Source: Candidatus Syntropharchaeum caldarium
Lineage (GTDB): Archaea; Halobacteriota; Syntropharchaeia; Syntropharchaeales; Syntropharchaeaceae
Length of the DNA stretch: 64,000 nt
Assembly: GCA_001766815.1 (NCBI GenBank)
Contig: LYOS01000001.1
Span: 148,998 to 212,997 of the forward strand
Direction of reading: 5' to 3'
The position numbers and the translations under genes were made by a program. Numbering within the stretch: position 1 is the stretch's first letter; each line of letters opens with the position of its first letter. The notes beneath the pieces were generated by a model. That model saw only the letters and a program-made list of their open reading frames with translations. It did no database searches and was not told the origin of the DNA. Shown one piece after another: positions 1,024-29,074 of this stretch.

Positions 1024-2130
1024 GATGAGATTGCTGAAACCGACGAGCTTAACAATACGTTGAGTGCGACCGTGGACGTGGTTGAAGCAGCAGGACCAAG
1101 TGTTACGGTTGATAGCCGTGATGTATCCCCTGGTGAGACGTTCACGATCAGTATAACCGTCGATCCGCAGGGTGAGGAGATTTACGGAGCACAGTATGAC
1201 CTTTACTTTGATCCAGCAATCTTGCAGGTTGTGAGCCAGACCGCGGGCGACTTCCTGACACAGGACGGTGCAAGCTCAATCGAAGTCGTGAACACGATCA
1301 ACAACACCCTTGGAAAGCTTGAGTACGGTGAGACACGGATGGGAGTGGAGAATGGCGTGACTCGGGCAGGCGTTCTCGCCACGATCGAATTCGAGGCTGT
1401 TGGAACCGGGTCAACCGGTCTCACGCTATCAAACGTGCTCTTAAGCGATCCAAGTGCACATGAGATTGGAGGAGTCGTGCTGAACGATGGAGCGGTCAAC
1501 GTAGCAGGGACGCCACCGCCGCCACCACCAGGTGGTGCGATCGTAACGATCCCTGACGTTGGAGCAACAGGAACGCTCACAGTCCCGATCAGAATCGAGA
1601 ACGTGACAGACGCAGGCGCAATCCATCTGACACTCACCTATGACCCTCGTGTTGTCATCGTATCAACTGCGTGCTGCAACTCAGACTTTGACACACTCTT
1701 TGCAAACATCGAGGATGCAGCAAGAGGATCTATTACCATCATCGCATACCAGACCCAAAACCCAGGTCTGAACGGCAATGTGCTCGTTGCAGACGTGACT
1801 TTCATGGCACTCGGCCCCATCGGATCATCGAGCACCCTTAACCTAGAGGTCACAACACTCACCGACGCAACACCAGAGTGCAACCCGATCCCCTACTCAG
1901 TCAGCAATGGAAGCTTCACGGTATTCTTAAACGGCGACGTGAACGGTGATGGCAGGGTCGATGCTGCAGACTGCATGTACCTTGCAAAACACCTGCTCGG
2001 GGTCTCAGGTTTTGAGACGATCGTTGAGGTTGCAGCAGATGTCAATGGTAACGGCGAGATCGAGGCATCAGACTGCATGTACCTTGCAAAGCATCTTGCA
2101 GGGATTGACGGATTTGAGGAGTTGAAGTAG
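1..2130 (+). CDS. Giant secreted surface protein, paralog 1 (5' end truncated by window edge): PQQ-like beta-propeller repeats, CARDB domain, two cohesin-like domains, PPPPPP linker, C-terminal dockerin
   Basis: Frame 1 is open from position 1 to TAG at 2128-2130. Repeated YxLNxxxGxxxWQ propeller-like motifs, CARDB-like NVSLRVNGE block, cohesin-like blocks (YDLYFDPAILQVV, LTLTYDPRVVIVS), dockerin duplicated loops DVNGDGRVDAADCMYLAKHLLG and DVNGNGEIEASDCMYLAKHLAG. Confidence 0.75.
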   Translation, partial: PCVAYGNVYVGSWNGGHYYCLNDSTGEIKWQFPPKGEKKLDHAQSTPAAHNGMVFFGDFTGGPKSKVFAVDGLTGEEIWNQTVSWSVCGSVTIAHNKVYLMTYNFYGSGEFYALNENNGSIVWQHTIARSDSTPAHAYGNIYVCGGCPGYERCRTYCLNDADGGNETWNVPDWGIWTYSPMVADKKVFIGKAEGPGMDSMLPAGMSARNAFTGEEIWRSDLGGGSPAIVHGRVYTVGGVNATGRVICFGSTNQPDLELSNLTTVPKSDIYVGQNVSINVTLRNIGSGNASAFNVSLRVNGEIEAEKRIDDGLNVNVSMPVNFSWTPVEAGEYLIIVEADSDDEIAETDELNNTLSATVDVVEAAGPSVTVDSRDVSPGETFTISITVDPQGEEIYGAQYDLYFDPAILQVVSQTAGDFLTQDGASSIEVVNTINNTLGKLEYGETRMGVENGVTRAGVLATIEFEAVGTGSTGLTLSNVLLSDPSAHEIGGVVLNDGAVNVAGTPPPPPPGGAIVTIPDVGATGTLTVPIRIENVTDAGAIHLTLTYDPRVVIVSTACCNSDFDTLFANIEDAARGSITIIAYQTQNPGLNGNVLVADVTFMALGPIGSSSTLNLEVTTLTDATPECNPIPYSVSNGSFTVFLNGDVNGDGRVDAADCMYLAKHLLGVSGFETIVEVAADVNGNGEIEASDCMYLAKHLAGIDGFEELK

Positions 2131-2138
2131 AATAAGAA

Positions 2139-5100
2139 ATGGTGAAATGTGTGAGGCGATTGATAGCGGTATTTTTAATCTCGTTATTTATATTCCCGTT
2201 GGTATCTGCAGATCTCAGAAAGGATCTCACAGATAACCTCCCTCTAAGTGTAAGATCTCCTTCTGGTACTGAGACCCTGATCTGCGGTTACCTGTTTGAG
2301 AGGGGATCTACAGGCAGTGTAAGGATCACAAACCTCAACACCAGTTTAAGCTGGGATGCAAGGCTACTTGAGTCAGAGCCAGACTTCTACTACCTCTATC
2401 TCGATGAAATTGAGCTTAAAGCAGGAGATATGCTCAGGCTCAACGCAACCTCAGGTGATGAATCGGTCGTATTAATTCATACCGTAAACCAGAGTGAGAT
2501 CGATGAGCATCTGGTGTGGCTTGATATCATCGAGGATCTTGCGATAACAGAGATCACAATACCAAACAGAATTACAAAAGATATCAACACCACTATCCAC
2601 GCCGTAATTGAGAATATTGGACTGATACCAGTCGTTGTACCCTTCAATATTACATTCAGCGTTGATGGAGAACTCATAACTACTACCTCTTTTACAGAAG
2701 TTCCTTTAAACGCCAGTGAGAACTTTACCGTAGAATTTTATTGGACTCCTCTGGAATCCGGGATACACAACATCACAATCACTGTGGATCCGAATCATGA
2801 AATTATATCAGAGACGAATGAATCGAATAATCGAATGAAGAAAAGCGTGTCTGTTGCTGAACTACCTTCGTTTTATGTGCCACTGGACTTTCCCACGATT
2901 CAAGATGCGGTGGATAATGTAACAATTAACGGAACCACGATTTATGTCGCAAGCGGCACGTATAACGAGAATATAATGATTCAAAAGCAGATCACACTTC
3001 TGGGAGCGGATATGAATGATACAATCATAGACGGAGGTGGGAACGATACATTAAGGCTTTTTGCGAATAATTGTGTCATCAGAGGTTTTTCGATAATTAA
3101 TGGGAGCACAGGTATAAAGATCGAATCCAATGGCAATAAAATCTTTGAAAATTGGATTTATAACAACTCCTGCGGCGTAAATATCACCGGATTAAATAAT
3201 ACCGTTTATCATAATAATCTGAATAATGTTCAGAACGGATTTGATACCGGTAATAGTTCGTGGGACGATGGAAGGGAAGGAAACTACTGGAGCGATTGTA
3301 CCGGCGATGATTTCGATCTCAATGGGATTGTAGACACGCCTTATGAATGCGGGTGGGTAACGGATCGATATCCTTTAGTTTCTCCATATGTACTGCACAG
3401 AGACCCGGCAATCGCGTATCTCACTGTCCCCACATCTATTTATGTGAATGAAACGAATACTATCTTTGTGGGCATTGCCAATTACGGCACTTCAGAAGTG
3501 GCAAGCAATCTCTCACTCAAACTCGGTGGCACTATTCTGAACATGACGATTTCTCTACCATATAAGAGCATAAACGCTGTTTATTTCTGCGTGACTCCGA
3601 ACCAGATGGGGACAATAAACCTAACAGCGGAGATAGAGGCATGCAATGAAGATTCAAATAGAGCAAACAACCGGATGAGCGTGAATGTTACGGTAATTCC
3701 TTCGCCTTTTAAGCGCCTTTACAATTTTGATAACGAAACAACTATGGCGGAATATTATAAATATCAACTTCCTGAAAGCAGAACGAATGCTCTGGATTAC
3801 TTAGCAATGCAGCAGAATTCTGACGGCGGCATCGGTCAGGGTGGCTATTCGACAGATCTGGCTATTATAGCGGTATCATCTGCTGGAGAGAATCCGCAGG
3901 AGTTTGCGAGACTGAATTCGTCGCTTACAGATTATTTAAAAGCGCATCCGCCTCAGCATGACCTGACTTTAATATCTCGCTATGTGCTTGCGATTATCGC
4001 TTCTGGTGAGAATCCGCGTGATTTTGGTGGTAAAAACTATCTTGCGATGATTCAATCATTCTTCGATGGAGAACAGTTTGGAATTGAGAAGAATATCGTG
4101 GATGATGCGTGGGCTGTGCTTGCACTTACCGGAGCAGGATATGGCAATGACACAGAAATTATGCGAACTGAAAGGAATTATATTCTCAGGTGTCAGAATG
4201 AGAGTGATGGCGGATGGCCGTATTTTGAGAATGGAACGAGCTCAATCGATGTAACTGCGATAGCATTAGAAGCTCTGGTTGCTTCTGGTATAGCTGTGGA
4301 TAATAGTTCGATACAGAATGGCACGAAATATTTGGAAAAAAATCTTGTGAAGAATCAATGGGAAGAGGGGATGGGGCAGACAGACCCACTGCCAGAATCC
4401 AATCTGAAAAATTATGCTCATTCAGTCCAGGCAATCGTTGCTGTTGGAGGGAATCCGATAGATGGAAGCTGGGATTATTCGCAGAGTGCAGCTACATACT
4501 ACGGGATTGAAAACCCATACAACCCGCTACTTCTGCTCTTGGGACTCGAAGAGAAGTCGGGCGATTTTGAAGGTGGATTCGCGTTCACATTTAAAGATTC
4601 TTATCCCGAACCTAAATGGACATCAATGGCACTCCCCTCGCTGTTCGCAAAGCCATATCCTTCGATGTGCACGTATAGCCGGGTGCTATCAGACATAAAG
4701 CCCATTCATATAGGGACACGGGCTTGCTACACCAATGTTACAAATATTATCAATGCAACAATCAAGAACAACGGCGGGATATTCAACGTGAGTCTTCTTG
4801 TGGATGGTGCCGAGGTTGACCGCGCGAGAATTGTGGAGACGAATTCAACTGCATTATCGCGGGTGGAATTCAGATGGCTGCCAGAGAAAGAAGGGGAATA
4901 TAACCTCACCGTTGTGGCAGATTCTGAGAATTCAATAGAAGAGAATAATGAGAGCAATAACTGCATCGGCCGCGTGGTCACTGTGACGAAGCCAGACCTG
5001 CACCCCAGGACAGAACTGCCAGCATTCTATGTCAATGTGACAAACAGAATAGAAACAGAAGTTTTAGGATACGGCGAGGGATTCAACGTATCGCTTCTTA

Positions 5101-8039
5101 TAAATGGAAGCGTTGTAGATAAAGCCGAGAATATCAGCTCTTATGGCTTTAATAAAACAACGTTATACTGGAAGCCAAACCAAACGGGTAACTACACTCT
5201 TAGACTCATCGCTGATTCGGAAAACGATGTATTTGAATCCGATGAGAAGAATAACACCATAGAAGAGAATGTCAGTGTAATACTGCCCGACCTATATCCT
5301 CAGAATATAAGCACTATGATACTGTACACCGATACCGAGAACATCATAGATGTCAGCATCAACGGCTCAGCAGAAGGATTTAACGCGACTTTATTTGCAA
5401 ACGGAACGATTGCAGATAAAATCGAGAACATTTCATCTTATAACGTGGCGAATATCAGTTTTTCGTGGAACCCCCTGCTGGCAGGTGTTTACAACCTCAC
5501 AGTGATGGTAGATGCTGATGATGAGATAGAAGAGACGAACGAAACGAACAACAATCTGAGTCGTATTGTAACCGTAGAGAATCGAGAAGCGCCATACATA
5601 AAACTACTCGCTCCGATAGGTGGTGAATGCTGGAGCGGTGTGCAGACGATAAAGTGGAGTGCAACCGACCCGAACGGCGATGAACTAATAATAAACATCA
5701 GCTACAGCCCGGATGCAGGAATAATGTGGCATCCAATTGCAAGCAATCTTGAGAACACAGGCTATTATAATTGGAGCACCGAGTACATGCTGGATGGATA
5801 TGATTATAAGGTAAAAGTAGAAGCATTTGATGGGAATTCTACCTCAGTGGATATCTCAAAAGATGTATTCACAATCTACAACAGGAGATCGTATGAGGGG
5901 GCACCAAGCTTCCATTATAATGCGGGTTTCTCACTCTCGGAAGCGCCGAATACGAATAAAACTGCGTGGATAACCGAAGATATTGGTGCATGCCCTTCCA
6001 CTTCTCTTATTGTTGCCGATGGTAAGGTCTTTGTCTACTGCTATGACAGTGTGAAGGCACTGGACGAATTAAATGGCAGCACAGACCTAAATGGCAGCAC
6101 AAAACCCATCTGGAGCACATCCATAGATAAGGCTGTTTATGGCTCGTGGGCGACTGCGGCATACTACGACGGATCGGTATTCATAGCTTCAGGAAATCAT
6201 GTTTACCGAATTAGTGCTAAAGATGGAAAGATAGAATGGAGGTTCCAATTCCCTGATGGGGGGTGCAGTGTGAATAGTGGTCCGTGTGTTGCATACGGAA
6301 ATGTATATGTGGGTTCATGGAACGGGGGGCACTATTACTGCTTGAATGACTCAACTGGAGAAATAAAATGGCAATTTCCTCCAAAAGGTGAAAAGAAACT
6401 GGATCACGCACAATCAACACCAGCAGCACATAACGGAATGGTCTTCTTCGGTGATTTTACAGGCGGACCGAAATCAAAGGTTTTTGCCGTTGATGGACTT
6501 ACAGGTGAAGAGATATGGAATCAAACAGTTTCGTGGAGTGTCTGCGGCTCCGTTACGATTGCGCACAATAAGGTATACCTCATGACATATAATTTCTATG
6601 GTTCAGGAGAGTTTTATGCACTCAATGAAAATAACGGAAGCATTGTCTGGCAACATACGATTGCAAGGTCCGATTCTACACCGGCGCATGCGTATGGAAA
6701 CATCTATGTCTGTGGTGGATGCCCAGGTTATGAGCGGTGTAGAACATACTGTCTGAATGATGCAGACGGAGGAAACGAGACCTGGAATGTGCCTGATTGG
6801 GGGATATGGACATATTCACCGATGGTTGCAGATAAGAAAGTATTTATTGGTAAAGCAGAGGGACCGGGGATGGACAGTATGCTCCCAGCAGGGATGTCTG
6901 CTCGTAATGCCTTTACCGGAGAAGAGATATGGCGTTCAGATCTCGGCGGTGGTTCACCCGCGATTGTGCATGGGAGGGTATATACCGTGGGGGGTGTTAA
7001 TGCAACGGGCAGAGTTATCTGTTTCGGCTCTACAAACCAACCAGACCTCGAACTGAGTAATCTCACTACGGTTCCAAAGTCAGATATCTATGTCGGTCAA
7101 AATGTTTCAATCAATGTGACACTCAGAAATATTGGCTCTGGTAACGCTTCTGCATTTAACGTTTCTTTACGAGTTAATGGTGAGATAGAAGCGGAAAAAA
7201 GAATTGATGATGGACTTAATGTAAACGTTAGCATGCCTGTGAATTTCTCGTGGACTCCAGTAGAAGCTGGGGAGTATCTTATCATCGTTGAAGCGGATTC
7301 GGATCACGAAATTACCGAGCAGGTTTCAATGCCAGACAATAATAAGGTTAGTAGACCATTAACGGTAAAAGAGTGGCTGGACTTGGCAGTGGAGGATATT
7401 GATTATTATCCAACGGAGGTTCACGTTGGGGATATTGTGAATATAACACCCTCTATTACGGCGGTAAACCTCGAAGGGGAAAGTGTTGGGGTTGAGTTTA
7501 AAGTTGATGATGAAAGTAAAGAGACAAAGAGAGGCGTAGTTAACGGAGAGCAGATAACTGTAAACTTCACATGGAATGCTTCGAGTCCTGGCGGGTATAA
7601 CCTGACGATAGTCGCCGATCCGGGTGGTGGGATAGATGAAGTTAACGAGACGAATAACGAGACGACAATAGTGGTGGAAGTGATGCCAACGCCAACACCA
7701 ACATCCACTCCAACTCCCGGCTTACCCCACGGTTATGGCGGTGGTGGAGGTGGTGGCTCCGGGATATTTGACTGGGGCGAGTTCTTCGGATCGGGTACAG
7801 GCAGTGAGGGCAATGAAACAGGTGAATTTACGATCCCGATAAATGAGACAGAATCTGTGATTGAAGAAGATTCATCGCGTGTGAATGGCTATCCAATGGG
7901 TGAGGAGACCGGAGGAAGTGCGGGCGGTGGAGGAAAGATCTCTTATATCTGGATCCTCATCGTAACCCTGACGCTTGCCCTTGTGATCTATGGTTACTGG
8001 CGAGAGTCGAGGTTTATCGGTAGGAGGAGGAGAAGATGA
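2139..8039 (+). CDS. Giant secreted, membrane-anchored surface protein, paralog 2 (1966 aa): signal peptide, multiple CARDB domains, parallel beta-helix, alpha/alpha-toroid (prenyltransferase-like) region, PQQ-like beta-propeller, C-terminal TP-rich and Gly-rich linker, TM helix, poly-Arg tail
   Basis: Single 5.9 kb ORF. N-terminal MVKCVRRLIAVFLISLFIFPLVSA signal-like segment; beta-helix motifs (TIYVASGTYNENIMIQKQITLLG, NNCVIRGFSIINGS); toroid-like repeats (QQNSDGGIGQGG, CQNESDGGWPYFENG); many NxS/T sequons; C-terminus TPTPTSTPTPG..GGGGGGGSG..ISYIWILIVTLTLALVIYGYWRESRFIGRRRRR. Confidence 0.8.
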   Translation: MVKCVRRLIAVFLISLFIFPLVSADLRKDLTDNLPLSVRSPSGTETLICGYLFERGSTGSVRITNLNTSLSWDARLLESEPDFYYLYLDEIELKAGDMLRLNATSGDESVVLIHTVNQSEIDEHLVWLDIIEDLAITEITIPNRITKDINTTIHAVIENIGLIPVVVPFNITFSVDGELITTTSFTEVPLNASENFTVEFYWTPLESGIHNITITVDPNHEIISETNESNNRMKKSVSVAELPSFYVPLDFPTIQDAVDNVTINGTTIYVASGTYNENIMIQKQITLLGADMNDTIIDGGGNDTLRLFANNCVIRGFSIINGSTGIKIESNGNKIFENWIYNNSCGVNITGLNNTVYHNNLNNVQNGFDTGNSSWDDGREGNYWSDCTGDDFDLNGIVDTPYECGWVTDRYPLVSPYVLHRDPAIAYLTVPTSIYVNETNTIFVGIANYGTSEVASNLSLKLGGTILNMTISLPYKSINAVYFCVTPNQMGTINLTAEIEACNEDSNRANNRMSVNVTVIPSPFKRLYNFDNETTMAEYYKYQLPESRTNALDYLAMQQNSDGGIGQGGYSTDLAIIAVSSAGENPQEFARLNSSLTDYLKAHPPQHDLTLISRYVLAIIASGENPRDFGGKNYLAMIQSFFDGEQFGIEKNIVDDAWAVLALTGAGYGNDTEIMRTERNYILRCQNESDGGWPYFENGTSSIDVTAIALEALVASGIAVDNSSIQNGTKYLEKNLVKNQWEEGMGQTDPLPESNLKNYAHSVQAIVAVGGNPIDGSWDYSQSAATYYGIENPYNPLLLLLGLEEKSGDFEGGFAFTFKDSYPEPKWTSMALPSLFAKPYPSMCTYSRVLSDIKPIHIGTRACYTNVTNIINATIKNNGGIFNVSLLVDGAEVDRARIVETNSTALSRVEFRWLPEKEGEYNLTVVADSENSIEENNESNNCIGRVVTVTKPDLHPRTELPAFYVNVTNRIETEVLGYGEGFNVSLLINGSVVDKAENISSYGFNKTTLYWKPNQTGNYTLRLIADSENDVFESDEKNNTIEENVSVILPDLYPQNISTMILYTDTENIIDVSINGSAEGFNATLFANGTIADKIENISSYNVANISFSWNPLLAGVYNLTVMVDADDEIEETNETNNNLSRIVTVENREAPYIKLLAPIGGECWSGVQTIKWSATDPNGDELIINISYSPDAGIMWHPIASNLENTGYYNWSTEYMLDGYDYKVKVEAFDGNSTSVDISKDVFTIYNRRSYEGAPSFHYNAGFSLSEAPNTNKTAWITEDIGACPSTSLIVADGKVFVYCYDSVKALDELNGSTDLNGSTKPIWSTSIDKAVYGSWATAAYYDGSVFIASGNHVYRISAKDGKIEWRFQFPDGGCSVNSGPCVAYGNVYVGSWNGGHYYCLNDSTGEIKWQFPPKGEKKLDHAQSTPAAHNGMVFFGDFTGGPKSKVFAVDGLTGEEIWNQTVSWSVCGSVTIAHNKVYLMTYNFYGSGEFYALNENNGSIVWQHTIARSDSTPAHAYGNIYVCGGCPGYERCRTYCLNDADGGNETWNVPDWGIWTYSPMVADKKVFIGKAEGPGMDSMLPAGMSARNAFTGEEIWRSDLGGGSPAIVHGRVYTVGGVNATGRVICFGSTNQPDLELSNLTTVPKSDIYVGQNVSINVTLRNIGSGNASAFNVSLRVNGEIEAEKRIDDGLNVNVSMPVNFSWTPVEAGEYLIIVEADSDHEITEQVSMPDNNKVSRPLTVKEWLDLAVEDIDYYPTEVHVGDIVNITPSITAVNLEGESVGVEFKVDDESKETKRGVVNGEQITVNFTWNASSPGGYNLTIVADPGGGIDEVNETNNETTIVVEVMPTPTPTSTPTPGLPHGYGGGGGGGSGIFDWGEFFGSGTGSEGNETGEFTIPINETESVIEEDSSRVNGYPMGEETGGSAGGGGKISYIWILIVTLTLALVIYGYWRESRFIGRRRRR
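6282..7304. repeat. Copy B of the exact ~1.0 kb direct repeat (partner at 1-1023), inside giant protein paralog 2
   Basis: See copy A; encodes the same PQQ-propeller/CARDB block in both paralogs. Confidence 0.85.
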
Positions 8040-8074
8040 TGAGTATCGACAGGGAAGAGAACACCTGTAGCTCA

Positions 8075-8266
8075 TCAGTAAGCCTCGTCGTGATGAACGA
8101 GCCTGTCGAAGATGAGAACCCTGAGATTCTTGAAACGATGGATCATCTCCTCGTCACAGGCAGAAATCTGGTTTATCTTCATTTGAACTCTTCTAAAAAA
8201 TGCCATGTCTTTCTTTTTGATCTTTATCATCGTTCGTTTGAGTTCGTCGGAGATGCAGATCTTCAT
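8075..8266 (-). CDS. Small hypothetical protein, possible ribbon-helix-helix-like DNA-binding protein
   Basis: 63 aa ORF; N-terminal KICISDELKRTM resembles the strand-helix start of RHH proteins and parallels the adjacent upstream ORF; the + strand ORF across this region is Ser-rich low complexity. Confidence 0.3.
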   Translation of the reverse strand: MKICISDELKRTMIKIKKKDMAFFRRVQMKINQISACDEEMIHRFKNLRVLIFDRLVHHDEAY

Positions 8267-8571
8267 AATTCATTGCACCATTTATCGAACTCTTCCAGGC
8301 TCATGGGCTTTCTCTTACCGGATTCAAGTTCTTTCAATACCTCCTCTGTAGATCTAACGACTTCCTTAGCCAGAGAATCTTTGACCTCCTTCTCATCATC
8401 CGGTATTTCAGATATTTCAGCAATTTTCCTTCCCATCTCAAGTTCTTCTATATCATGTAATCTTTCAGAGATAGCTTTTAATGCTACTGCTGGCCAATCA
8501 ACCCAATCTATTCTGGACATTCGCTCCTTCAGCTTGTCAGGTATCACAACCTTTATCTTTGCCATTCCCAT
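8263..8571 (-). CDS. Small hypothetical protein, ribbon-helix-helix-like (putative transcriptional regulator)
   Basis: 102 aa charged helical protein; N-terminal KIKVVIPDKLKERMSRI resembles the RHH beta-strand/helix motif; 4-nt overlap with the next small ORF; divergent from the ExbB-like gene. Confidence 0.4.
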   Translation of the reverse strand: MGMAKIKVVIPDKLKERMSRIDWVDWPAVALKAISERLHDIEELEMGRKIAEISEIPDDEKEVKDSLAKEVVRSTEEVLKELESGKRKPMSLEEFDKWCNEL

Positions 8572-8594
8572 CGCCTATGGCTATATCGGTCATT

Positions 8595-8608
8595 CGTTTA
8601 TAAATAGC
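8595..8608. promoter_or_regulatory. TATA-like element in the divergent intergenic region between the RHH-like gene and the ExbB-like gene
   Basis: cgtttataaatagc; an AAGGAGG Shine-Dalgarno-like motif follows at 8648-8654, a few nt before the ATG at 8659. Confidence 0.3.
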
Positions 8609-8658
8609 TTCTCACAGATGGAGAACTCAACGTTTACTGTTAAACAAAGGAGGAAAAT

Positions 8659-9255
8659 ATGATAGATATATTTGCAACGCTCCAGTCATCGATATACTAC
8701 ATCTCAACATACCTTCTGTATCCAGTGATCATTGCACTGCTTATCTGTGTTGGCTTCATCCTCGTTGACACAGGGTCTTTTCTCTACGAGATATACAGAA
8801 GAAAGAGGTTACACTTTGAGTTTGAGGATGAAGTTATCTCAGGCAGGTTTGTTGCGCTATTCATGAAAGAGCTTGAGCACATGGATCATGAAGATAGATA
8901 CTTTGATCTCAAGCTCCAGAAGCTCCTGAATGATATGGAGTATCTCATATCAAAGCGGCTTGAGCTGACGAAGCTCATATCAAGGATTGGTCCCATGTTC
9001 GGTCTTATGGGAACTTTAATCCCGATGGGACCTGCTTTGATAGGGCTTACTCACGGTGACATCGAGACCCTTGCAGATAACCTCATCATCGCATTCGGGA
9101 CAACAGTCGTGGGGCTTCTGGTCGGTGCGGTATCTTACTCGATCGCGATGGTCAGAACGCGCTGGTATGATCAGGAGATGGATGATATGGAGTTTGTATG
9201 TGAGATTGTGACGGGAGGTAGTCAGGATGAAATACATGAAGAAGAGAAGAGGTAA
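8659..9255 (+). CDS. MotA/TolQ/ExbB family proton-channel protein
   Basis: Signature region IGPMFGLMGTLIPMGPALIGLTHGDIETLADNLIIAFGTTVVGLLVGAVSYSIAMVRTRW matches the TolQ/ExbB conserved core; N-terminal TM helix. Confidence 0.7.
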   Translation: MIDIFATLQSSIYYISTYLLYPVIIALLICVGFILVDTGSFLYEIYRRKRLHFEFEDEVISGRFVALFMKELEHMDHEDRYFDLKLQKLLNDMEYLISKRLELTKLISRIGPMFGLMGTLIPMGPALIGLTHGDIETLADNLIIAFGTTVVGLLVGAVSYSIAMVRTRWYDQEMDDMEFVCEIVTGGSQDEIHEEEKR

Positions 9256-9571
9256 GAAGAAGCGATCCTTTGAGGAGGATCCGATGAGTGGTGTTGCAAA
9301 TCTATTCGATGTTGCGATGGTCTTTGCGGTTGCGCTTCTGATAGCGCTTGTATCTTCCTACCATATTCAGGAGCTTCTTGATCCGACCAGGGATATCACA
9401 ATCGTCAAGAACCCTGGACAGCCTGATATGCAGGTCATCGTGAAGGAGGGGAAGGAGATAAAGACGCTGAATGTGACAGAGGAGATGAGTGAAGTTGAGA
9501 TTGCAGGAACTGTTGGAACGATCTACAGGACACCGGATGGTGGAATGGTATATGTGCCTGAGGGTGGATGA
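9227..9571 (+). CDS. ExbD/TolR-like single-pass membrane protein (DUF2149-like partner of archaeal MotA/ExbB homologs)
   Basis: Basic N-terminus then TM helix ANLFDVAMVFAVALLIALV with an embedded Asp, as in ExbD/TolR/MotB; overlaps the ExbB-like gene (start may be 9236). Confidence 0.5.
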   Translation: MKYMKKRRGKKKRSFEEDPMSGVANLFDVAMVFAVALLIALVSSYHIQELLDPTRDITIVKNPGQPDMQVIVKEGKEIKTLNVTEEMSEVEIAGTVGTIYRTPDGGMVYVPEGG

Positions 9572-9754
9572 GATGAGATCATTATCCATAAAAATAAATT
9601 AAAAAAGTTCAAAATGTAGAATCCGCGACTGACAGATTTTCAAAAGCTTAAGGGTGTGGTAAGGAATAAGAGGTAAAAGATTGGCAGAAACAGCCTGGAA
9701 AAACATATATACATTGACCGAGTACTGATGTTTTATTAATGAGAAGGTTACTTT

Positions 9755-11263
9755 ATGAAAGGGGGATTATCCATCCTTGCAGAGAAAAACAATGCAAATG
9801 GTTTAGAGCCTGTACAGAAGACGAAAGAAACGGGTAAACAGGCATATCTGATACTTGGGTGTGGAGCGATAGGACTTGCGACAGCGAAAGGTTTAAAAAA
9901 GCAAGATTATACAGTTCTGATCGTTGATATAAATGAAAAGGTTGTTGAGAGCCTTAGAGAGCAAAATATGGACGCCTGTCTGGGCGATATGAGCGATCCC
10001 AAATTTTTAGAGACAGTACTTGCTAATAAGCAGTTCAATGCAATCCTGATTCTTGGAGATAATTCTGCATCAAATCAGCAGGCGCTCAGAACAATCAAAA
10101 AAATCACTCCAGAGACGTACGTCGTTGTACGTGCAATCGATCCTGTTGAGCAAGAAGATCTGAAGGAACTGGGTGTGGATGCACTGGTTCTACCTGCTGA
10201 GATTGTTGCAAAACATATCATCAGAACGCTTGAAGGTGTTGCACTCTCAAAGCGTACAGATAAACTCATAAAATTGCTGGCTGGTATGAAAGGTAGCAAG
10301 CTTGGCATCGTTCTTCACGACAGTCCTGATCCTGATGCGATCGCAAGTGGACTTGCGCTCAAGTATATCGCAGAAACGACAGGTACCGATGCAGAGATCC
10401 TTTATCATGGGGAAGTCGGGCACCAGGTCAATCGCGCGTTTGTGAACCTCCTCAATATAAATATGCGGCGTATCGAGGAGGTTGACCTTGATGAGTTTGC
10501 AGGCTTTGCACTTGTTGACACATCACCCGGTGCAAATAACTCACTTCCACCAGAGATCGAACCCGACATCATCATAGACCATCACCCACCCATGAAAACC
10601 GAGTTTTCATCCTATTATGTCGATGTGCGTCCAGGAACTGGATCCTGTTCCACAATTCTTACAAAATATCTTCAGCAACTGGAACTACCAATCGAGAAGG
10701 AACTTGCAACAGCTCTGATTCATGGAATAAGAACTGATACACAGGAATTTAAGCGAAACACCAGCCCCGCAGATCTCACCGCAGCAGCGTTCCTTTACCC
10801 ACTCGTGGATCACACACTACTTGGTCAGATTGAGACACCTCCGATGTCCACCGAGACGCTGGACGTGCTTGGGGAGGCGATAAGGAGACGAACGGTGAAG
10901 GGGAGTTATCTCGTCTCAAACGTCGGTTTTATCATGGATCGAGATGCACTGGTACAGGCAGCAGATTATCTTCTCAACCTTGAGGGAATATCCACCGTAC
11001 TTGTATTTGGGCTCAGTGAAGATAAAATTCACATAACCGGGCGTAACAAAGATGTCCGGATAAATATAGGGGCCGTTCTTCAGGAGGCGTTTGGTGATAT
11101 CGGTACTGCTGGTGGACATTCAACAGCAGGGGCTGCACAGATACCACTGGGTGTATTCAGCGGTATGAAGGATAAAGAAAGCCTGCTGAAGCTGGTTGGT
11201 GACGCGGTTACCATGCGTTTCTTCTCAAAGATCGGGATCGAAAACGGCGATAAAACAACCTGA
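9755..11263 (+). CDS. DHH-family phosphoesterase with N-terminal TrkA-N (NAD-binding) domain
   Basis: Rossmann motif LILGCGAIGLATAKGL; DHH motifs (DSPDPDAIASG, IIIDHHPP) and DHHA1-like C-terminus (GGHSTAGAAQ). Confidence 0.7.
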   Translation: MKGGLSILAEKNNANGLEPVQKTKETGKQAYLILGCGAIGLATAKGLKKQDYTVLIVDINEKVVESLREQNMDACLGDMSDPKFLETVLANKQFNAILILGDNSASNQQALRTIKKITPETYVVVRAIDPVEQEDLKELGVDALVLPAEIVAKHIIRTLEGVALSKRTDKLIKLLAGMKGSKLGIVLHDSPDPDAIASGLALKYIAETTGTDAEILYHGEVGHQVNRAFVNLLNINMRRIEEVDLDEFAGFALVDTSPGANNSLPPEIEPDIIIDHHPPMKTEFSSYYVDVRPGTGSCSTILTKYLQQLELPIEKELATALIHGIRTDTQEFKRNTSPADLTAAAFLYPLVDHTLLGQIETPPMSTETLDVLGEAIRRRTVKGSYLVSNVGFIMDRDALVQAADYLLNLEGISTVLVFGLSEDKIHITGRNKDVRINIGAVLQEAFGDIGTAGGHSTAGAAQIPLGVFSGMKDKESLLKLVGDAVTMRFFSKIGIENGDKTT

Positions 11264-28872: not shown

Positions 28873-28942
28873 TACGTTTCACCGTTCATTCTTAATAGCA
28901 GGGGGTATTTAAAGTTTGAGTTGCATCCAACCTTACCCCTGA

Positions 28943-29014
28943 TGCGCCGACCGGGATTCGAACCCGAGTTTGAGGCTTGGCAAGCCTCGGTGATAACCGC
29001 TACACTATCGGCGC
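28943..29014 (-). tRNA. tRNA-Gly (anticodon GCC)
   Basis: 72 nt cloverleaf on the reverse complement: acceptor GCGCCGA/TCGGCGC, anticodon stem GAGGC/GCCTC with loop TTGCCAA, T-arm TCGGG-TTCGAAT-CCCGG, discriminator A; no encoded CCA. Confidence 0.85.
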
Positions 29015-29074
29015 AGACGATCTTTAATACCATAGTGTAATATATAACCCTAACGATTACATGCTGGGGAAGAT

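Follow-up and report, generated by a model that had tools for sequence, protein, structure and literature searches.

What are cohesin and dockerin domains doing on a single polypeptide of an archaeon with no obvious cellulolytic role? The question is raised by the first gene in a stretch of 64,000 nucleotides (nt) from Candidatus Syntropharchaeum caldarium (contig LYOS01000001.1, positions 148,998 to 212,997, forward strand), referred to here as the window. The gene, which we call paralog 1, is read on the + strand; its frame 1 is open from window nt 1 to a stop codon at nt 2128-2130, so that only the 3' part (nt 1-2130; 709 codons plus stop) is visible, with the gene start outside the window and the 5' end cut by the window edge. 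The initial annotation, made from the sequence alone, had described the end of this gene as two cohesin-like beta-sandwich blocks followed by a dockerin on a giant surface protein, implying assembly of an extracellular scaffold. We favor, at a probability of roughly 60%, the reading that a secreted archaeal surface protein ends here in an 'adaptor scaffoldin' cassette that would act in trans, with a likely function in the calcium-dependent assembly of a protein network at the cell surface.

The Pfam families found on the visible paralog 1 protein were PQQ_2 blades, one CARDB domain, Cohesin (in two stretches) and Dockerin_1, and its tail has the architecture of an adaptor scaffoldin, namely at least two cohesins and one dockerin on one polypeptide. 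When the domains were scanned alone, cohesin 1 (nt 1087-1512) matched PF00963 with 63.3 bits (E 3.7e-17) and cohesin 2 (nt 1531-1923) with 36.0 bits (E 9.9e-9), where the curated Pfam cut-off is 24.1 bits. A profile built from 34 homologues and compared with the PDB retrieved 57 chains, every one of which contains a cohesin or a dockerin; examples are 3l8q (1e-11), the Archaeoglobus fulgidus cohesin 2xdh (4e-8) and the dockerin 3ul4_B (4e-9). The AlphaFold2 (AF2) model of the three domains, computed with 121 homologues in the alignment, had a mean predicted local distance difference test score (pLDDT) of 94.2 and was weak in the proline linker only; the AF2 models overall scored 94-95. Searching the PDB with the whole model in Foldseek placed the ScaA cohesin dyad 3l8q first (1e-18), followed by CipA cohesin-X-dockerin fragments and then by single cohesins, the last with target-normalised TM-scores (TMt) of 0.74-0.83. 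The leading single-cohesin matches were 1g1k (0.83), 1ohz_A (0.82), 6kgc_A (0.80) and 2xdh (0.79), and model and matches together show the nine-stranded flattened beta-sandwich (jelly-roll) of the cohesin fold. Another Ig-like family was considered for the sandwiches and rejected, with the BatD, PKD_5 and ASH matches all far under their cut-offs; integrin and AgI/II Ig-like structures also ranked far below cohesins in the structural search. Both blocks are true cohesins, since they exceed the Pfam cut-off and the profile and fold matches in the PDB agree.

The dockerin (nt 1924-2127) forms the extreme C-terminus and, by Pfam, alignment and AF2, consists of two near-identical segments with three helices. 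Scanned alone, it scored 57.7 bits (E 1.3e-15) against Dockerin_1 (PF00404, curated cut-off 22.9 bits), placing all three domains above the curated thresholds, and a phmmer single-sequence search of the PDB returned 22 dockerin-containing chains at E <= 0.004, including 3ul4_B at 9e-7. The duplicated segments are identical at 19/27 residues, and each contains a 12-residue EF-hand-like loop (D or N at positions 1, 3 and 5, acidic at position 12) that is followed by a helix. Calcium loop 1, DVNGDGRVDAAD (nt 1936-1971), has D, N, D, D and D at positions 1, 3, 5, 9 and 12, and calcium loop 2, DVNGNGEIEASD (nt 2038-2073), has D, N, N, E and D. Across 97 relatives the calcium-ligand positions 1, 3, 5 and 12 were D, N, D/N and D at 87-100% in both loops, with ligand-type residues summed. 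AF2 predicted the dockerin helices at model residues 293-304, 314-317 and 327-337, and the recognition helices carry a lineage-specific (C/A)MYLAKH(L/V) motif in both segments, which reads CMYLAKHL in each of the two segments here. The linker and both loops lie where the initial annotation had placed them, and the opposite outcome, in which the sandwiches belong to another Ig-like family and the loops lack the geometry for calcium, fails on every count.

A cysteine stands right after each calcium loop (DCMYLAKHL, twice) and is kept in 20-31% of the relatives. Within cohesin 2 there are a CC pair and a 'TPxCN' motif whose cysteine is conserved. Extracellular disulfides involving the cysteines of the dockerin and of cohesin 2 are possible.

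The two cohesins are distinct from one another. Cohesin 1 is of a variable type and cohesin 2 of a conserved type (as delimited by Pfam and AF2, with Foldseek for the former), and they are separated by the linker AGTPPPPPPGG, whose PPPPPP lies at nt 1513-1530 and which is the sole low-confidence block of the AF2 model (pLDDT 62). The two showed no significant BLASTP similarity (E 0.95), and this dissimilarity suggests that they differ in specificity. Judged from the models, both are type I-like, with TMt of 0.75-0.83 to type I cohesins versus 0.49-0.65 to types II and III; for cohesin 2 alone, type I structures (6kgc_A at 0.80, 2xdh at 0.79) again exceeded those of types II and III (0.49-0.59).

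Homologues of the tail numbered 178 at E <= 1e-5, and the architecture counts given below use the best 120 of these 178. Those with names came almost all from metagenome-assembled genomes (MAGs) of anaerobic methanotrophic archaea (ANME), Methanosarcinales, Syntrophoarchaeum and 'Methanoperedenaceae GB50'. Among species-representative genomes the best matches were two loci in the closed genome of 'Ca. Methanoperedenaceae archaeon GB37', each 88% identical over all 347 residues. GB37 is GoM-Arc1_E37, i.e., Ca. Ethanoperedens (LR991653.1), an ethane oxidiser with a long-read closed genome and a non-cellulolytic lifestyle that forms dense consortia with Ca. Desulfofervidus (PMC7175092). The GB37 orthologue is a protein of 635 amino acids (aa) that runs from a signal peptide through cohesin, CARDB, cohesin, PT linker and cohesin to a dockerin. 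N-terminal signal-like segments are present in the orthologues and in stand-alone homologues; the N-terminus of paralog 1 itself lies outside the window. The orthologue of the E50 strain, FHEFKHOI_00210, was transcribed in ethane culture at 269-309 reads per kilobase per million (RPKM), similar to neighbouring housekeeping genes and far below mcrA; Hahn 2020 (PMC7175092) leaves cohesins and dockerins undiscussed in the text, and the Prokka label 'Cohesin domain protein' appears in a table only. An archaeal host without a cellulolytic role, as the initial annotation had it, agrees with this kinship to an ethane oxidiser and with the PolD small subunit, EF-1alpha and Elp3 encoded in the window. 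Antisense open reading frames (ORFs) in nt 1203-2078 were rejected as genes, given the strong family matches and the 178 homologues of the + frame.

Examination of these relatives revealed that cohesin 2 and the dockerin travel together. The last strand of cohesin 2 passes directly into the dockerin in the window protein, and a cohesin directly abuts the dockerin in 100/120 homologues (median gap 0 residues), where the dockerin also comes last in the protein. In 33 of the 120, cohesin 2 and the dockerin alone stand behind unrelated N-terminal modules, and many different N-terminal domains precede the cassette across the set; approximately 12 homologues are free-standing proteins of ~370 aa with a signal peptide, two cohesins and a dockerin. 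Among the proteins with an unrelated N-terminal part is a 1559-aa subtilisin-like protease (L022, 1411-6090; HGTHCAG and SGTSMSCPHVAG motifs) that ends in cohesin 2 and dockerin, indicating that the cassette tags enzymes besides structural proteins. Mean pairwise identity among relatives fell from 67% for the dockerin to 56% for cohesin 2 and 39% for cohesin 1. GoM-Arc1, ANME-2, Syntrophoarchaeum and further archaea related to Methanosarcinales have the cassette as a C-terminal unit that is both conserved and mobile.

The same linker-less junction raises the alternative that cohesin 2 and the dockerin form a closed intramolecular complex, a structural cap or clasp that would leave cohesin 1 as the only free receptor. 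The junction was modelled at high confidence, and the predicted TM-score (pTM) rose from 0.58 for the three-domain construct to 0.81 for cohesin 2 plus dockerin alone, a difference that predicts a rigid didomain and a cohesin 1 that moves about on the proline linker. The two domains are, moreover, conserved together, and intramolecular dockerin clasps are known in Ruminococcus flavefaciens ScaA (PMC3821032). Nevertheless, we consider a closed clasp unlikely on account of the relatives described next. At eight MAG loci (L005, L008, L011, L012, L013, L015, L025 and L032) a gene for a cohesin 2-dockerin protein is immediately followed by a gene for an anchored cohesin, whose product carries the cohesin between a signal peptide and a spacer and ends in a transmembrane (TM) helix with a basic tail, and 6/8 of these anchor cohesins scored as type 2. 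Dockerin-only relatives of this type also occur in Methanoculleus and Methanomicrobiaceae. Orphan anchored cohesins and orphan dockerins argue for pairing in trans. Additionally, the internal symmetry of the dockerin (19/27) resembles that of dual-binding-mode dockerins, which bind in trans, as in the 2ccl and 2vn5-type complexes.

Under the trans adaptor reading, the membrane-anchored cohesin of the next gene is, on the evidence of gene order and domain type, the likely docking site at the paired loci. A related arrangement was found in GB37, where six cohesin/dockerin genes including the orthologue lie upstream of the orthologue of a giant surface protein. The five genes upstream of the adaptor orthologue encode a propeller-dockerin protein, a propeller-cohesin-PKD-dockerin protein, a cohesin-PKD-dockerin protein, a cohesin-dockerin protein and a 270-aa anchored cohesin. 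The 270-aa protein (L002, 7292-8104) consists of a signal peptide, a cohesin-1-type cohesin and a long PT linker with PGFGIFTICAIILSIYIVKRRS at the C-terminus; this PGFGIFTICAIILSIYIVKRRS end looks like a PGF-CTERM archaeosortase signal, which makes the protein a candidate lipid-anchored primary cohesin.

Two further functions were weighed against the same body of evidence. If the sandwiches were mainly adhesins for carbohydrate, exopolymer or partner-cell surfaces, with the dockerin as a calcium-stabilised stalk, one could point to the CARDB and propeller modules on the same protein, which are often termed adhesion domains, and to the placement of cohesins by InterPro in a carbohydrate-binding-like superfamily (table in PMC5244752). 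The sequence and fold matches, however, were all to true cohesins rather than to carbohydrate-binding modules (CBMs), no part of the protein is better conserved than the calcium loops and helices of the dockerin, and archaeal cohesin-dockerin binding has been shown (Haimovitz 2008, as cited in PMC9012536), so that we regard this function as very improbable. We give almost no credence to membership in a true polysaccharide-degrading cellulosome, despite the domain families held in common with cellulosomal scaffoldins. No glycoside hydrolase or CBM family was found in paralog 1, in its neighbour in the window or in the GB37 cluster proteins, whose cargo domains are PQQ propellers, PKD, CARDB and proteases, and the relatives are archaea that oxidise alkanes and methane. 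A survey of the 64-kb window for further cohesins and dockerins, which used home-built family hidden Markov models and a calcium-loop regular expression rather than a full Pfam scan of every ORF, found the paralog 1 protein only.

Whether the tail belongs to a giant protein at all, as the initial annotation supposed, turns on the sequence in front of it. The gene next to paralog 1, paralog 2 (nt 2139-8039, + strand), starts 8 nt past the paralog 1 stop and encodes a 1966-aa surface protein without cohesin or dockerin. Nucleotides 1-1023 of the window, which hold PQQ-like beta-propeller blades and most of a CARDB domain (Pfam PQQ_2 and CARDB), are 100% identical to nt 6282-7304 within paralog 2; this direct repeat reaches the window edge and is the only long repeat in the window. 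Downstream of approximately nt 1004 the sequence follows the GB37 adaptor gene at ~88% nucleotide identity, and upstream it is paralog 2. The crossover zone, located at nt 1004-1023 by comparison with both, falls in the last conserved motif of the CARDB domain, where the parents share ~9 exact bases plus scattered matches. The reading frame is kept across the junction, as is a complete CARDB domain spanning it (nt 757-1065; profile positions 1-100/101; 68.5 bits, cut-off 22.7). By these comparisons, paralog 1 as seen in the window is a hybrid with the propeller/CARDB front of the giant protein and the cohesin-cohesin-dockerin back of an adaptor; where paralog 2 continues with its second CARDB, PT/G linker and TM anchor, paralog 1 has the adaptor tail.

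The origin of the junction is either a recent recombination or an assembly chimera. In the latter case the fusion would be unreal, and the tail would belong to a small secreted adaptor that had been joined to paralog 2 sequence at the repeated CARDB module during assembly. We hold this to be a genuine but doubtful possibility, and the evidence is divided. The perfect identity with the neighbouring gene up to the window edge, the position of the join inside a repeated domain family and the 635-aa size of the closest complete orthologue, which is itself a secreted adaptor, all favor a chimera. Likewise, the junction 51-mer had no match in the metagenome contigs, and the metagenome protein scan yielded no independent copy of the hybrid junction; it yielded instead a paralog-2 form (L036), GB37-like cohesin-CARDB-cohesin adaptors (L037) and a propeller-cohesin fusion (L042). 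The closest metagenomic relative, and the sole close one, is L036 (JGI contig Ga0190361_1002412), which is 88% identical over 1960 aa and is of the anchored form only. On the other hand, ~9 exact shared bases are too short for a typical k-mer join, with the caveat that the parents compared were paralog 2 and the GB37 adaptor gene and not the adaptor of this genome, and an assembly error would have had to preserve both the frame and the complete CARDB. The locus does recombine: GB37 carries two 99.85%-identical copies of a 4765-bp cohesin-cluster segment (L001 and L002, locus positions 6311-11075) that lie ~660 kb apart and both stop exactly at the stop codon of the cohesin-CARDB-cohesin-cohesin-dockerin gene. 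Propeller-cohesin-dockerin fusions are also known in relatives (an 878-aa protein of GB37, and L042). Whichever origin the junction has, the tail itself is real and conserved. The 'giant surface protein' of the initial annotation is an extrapolation, considering that 709 codons are visible, that their N-terminal part is a 100% copy of paralog 2 and that the GB37 orthologue has 635 aa. If the join is real, one ectodomain would exist in two forms, membrane-anchored and dockerin-tethered, and the perfect 1-kb repeat with its in-frame junction may be a snapshot of surface proteins exchanging anchor modules.

Taken together, the trans adaptor reading leads to the following proposal. The calcium-loaded dockerin would plug in trans into a cohesin of the cohesin-2 type, which could sit on a membrane-anchored protein or on another cassette-bearing protein, the latter giving head-to-tail chaining. 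The two divergent cohesins would recruit further extracellular proteins that bear a dockerin, among them PQQ propellers, PKD proteins and proteases. A protein lattice of non-cellulolytic nature would result, either at the cell surface or within the matrix of an archaeal-bacterial consortium. In the window, the cassette would replace the transmembrane anchor of the neighbouring paralogue. Several observations weigh against this proposal. The survey of the window described above detected no cohesin or dockerin partner outside paralog 1. The next gene, both here and in GB37, encodes a giant TM protein without a cohesin, and the argument from an adjacent anchor is therefore borrowed from more distant relatives. 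The rigid cohesin 2-dockerin unit, as modelled, is equally compatible with cis docking on its own cohesin, and the attachment to the propeller/CARDB part could have arisen in assembly.

A bolder form of the proposal is that the cohesin 2-dockerin didomain is a self-complementary polymerisation cassette that would daisy-chain from membrane-anchored primers of the cohesin-2 type into an extracellular lattice of alkane-oxidising consortia. The window would then record a recent recombination at the CARDB domain in which anchors were swapped by domain shuffling, turning an anchored giant ectodomain into a lattice-tethered one. We advance this version as speculative and rather unlikely. Cohesin-dockerin proteins have been put forward in the literature as candidates for the 'glue' of the tightly packed consortia that methane- and alkane-oxidising archaea form with sulfate reducers. 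The locus raises no new question; it offers a well-defined, high-confidence construct in cohesin 1 and cohesin 2-dockerin, together with candidate partners in the TM- or PGF-anchored cohesins of relatives.

The paralog 2 product begins with a signal-like segment and contains seven CARDB domains, a beta-helix of NosD/pectin-lyase-like form, an alpha toroid like that of squalene cyclase and a PQQ-like propeller; a PT/G-rich linker then leads to a TM helix, behind which stands RRRRR. In one GB37 copy the adaptor orthologue is directly followed by the orthologue of paralog 2, a 3173-aa TM-anchored giant, and then by a MotA/ExbB-like gene. In the window, the giant gene is closely followed by a compact group of three small genes (nt 8036-9571): a 208-aa ORF without a family match that overlaps the giant-gene stop, a gene for a MotA/ExbB-family protein (nt 8659-9255) that is syntenic in GB37, and a 114-aa single-TM ORF with an ExbD/TolR-like layout (nt 9227-9571). 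These three could constitute a proton-channel module coupled to the giant surface protein. Exact matching of paralog 2 (1966 aa), EF-1alpha and the MotA-like protein against protein collections, and of a 42-mer against GTDB genomes, gave no hit. Nucleotides 11274-40063, the remainder of the inspected window, contain ordinary archaeal housekeeping genes, including those for the PolD small subunit, EF-1alpha, TruD, GatB, Elp3, aconitase, both the large and small subunits of carbamoyl-phosphate synthase and a protein like the alpha subunit of ADP-forming acetate-CoA ligase, and a tRNA-Gly(GCC) lies at nt 28941-29015.

Proteins of this kind have been described before. Timmers 2017 (PMC5244752) counted 52-80 cohesin and 44-149 dockerin domains in three marine ANME-1/ANME-2a genomes and suggested a role in adhesion. 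Chadwick 2022 (PMC9012536) reported that ANME proteins can combine a single dockerin with as many as 5 cohesins, and listed substrate-binding proteins and S-layer proteins among the common dockerin cargo. Murali 2023 (PMC10553843) found cohesin and dockerin genes to be highly expressed in ANME-2c and its partner Seep-SRB2. With domains and fold confirmed, the cohesin-dockerin observation of the initial annotation stands, and its expectation of extracellular self- or hetero-assembly is reasonable given the domain content and in line with published opinion (PMC9012536). The novelty it implied does not hold: dockerin proteins with multiple cohesins from these archaea are already in print in the same three papers, and the protein is a further case of the known non-cellulolytic 'molecular Lego' of methane- and alkane-oxidising archaea, not a new kind of system. 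What we add is modest: the didomain cassette, its conserved pairing with a neighbouring gene for an anchored cohesin, and a possible anchor swap.

The closest known systems are accordingly the cohesin-dockerin proteins of ANME and alkane oxidisers (PMC9012536, PMC5244752), which share with the window protein the lineage group, the combination of one dockerin with multiple cohesins ('scaffoldin-like'), the non-cellulolytic setting and the proposed role in surface or consortium assembly; MAG proteins of these groups are also its closest homologues. They differ in that those papers give domain counts and mention neither a cohesin 2-dockerin cassette without a linker, nor neighbouring genes for TM-anchored cohesins, nor a swap of anchor for cassette, and GoM-Arc1/Ethanoperedens is not specifically treated there for cohesin and dockerin domains. 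Archaeoglobus fulgidus (Bayer 1999; Haimovitz 2008) likewise provides an archaeal, noncellulosomal cohesin and dockerin without cellulases, with binding verified experimentally (Haimovitz 2008, as cited in PMC9012536). Its cohesin 2xdh has the same fold (TMt 0.78-0.79, root-mean-square deviation 2.5-3.1, profile E 4e-8), whereas the sequence identity is 16-19%, the lineage is another one, and the window protein has two divergent cohesins and a linker-less dockerin.

The bacterial counterparts resemble the window protein in architecture. The ScaA scaffoldins of Acetivibrio cellulolyticus and Ruminococcus flavefaciens have tandem cohesins and, at the C-terminus, a dockerin by which the adaptor docks onto a further scaffoldin, and the A. 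cellulolyticus ScaA dyad 3l8q was the best whole-model fold match (E 1e-18). They differ in their type II/III cohesins, X-modules, linkers and glycoside hydrolases; the window protein lacks an X-module and cellulase cargo, and its dockerin follows cohesin 2 without a linker. Finally, the type I dockerins of Clostridium thermocellum (1ohz, 2ccl) and the OlpA/OlpC-binding dockerins (3ul4, 4dh2) show the same duplicated calcium-loop-helix segments and high symmetry, 3ul4_B being the best sequence match among solved single-dockerin chains (E 9e-7). The (C/A)MYLAKH(L/V) helix motif, in contrast, belongs to the lineage of the window protein, for which the symmetry of the dockerin, and only that, suggests a dual binding mode.

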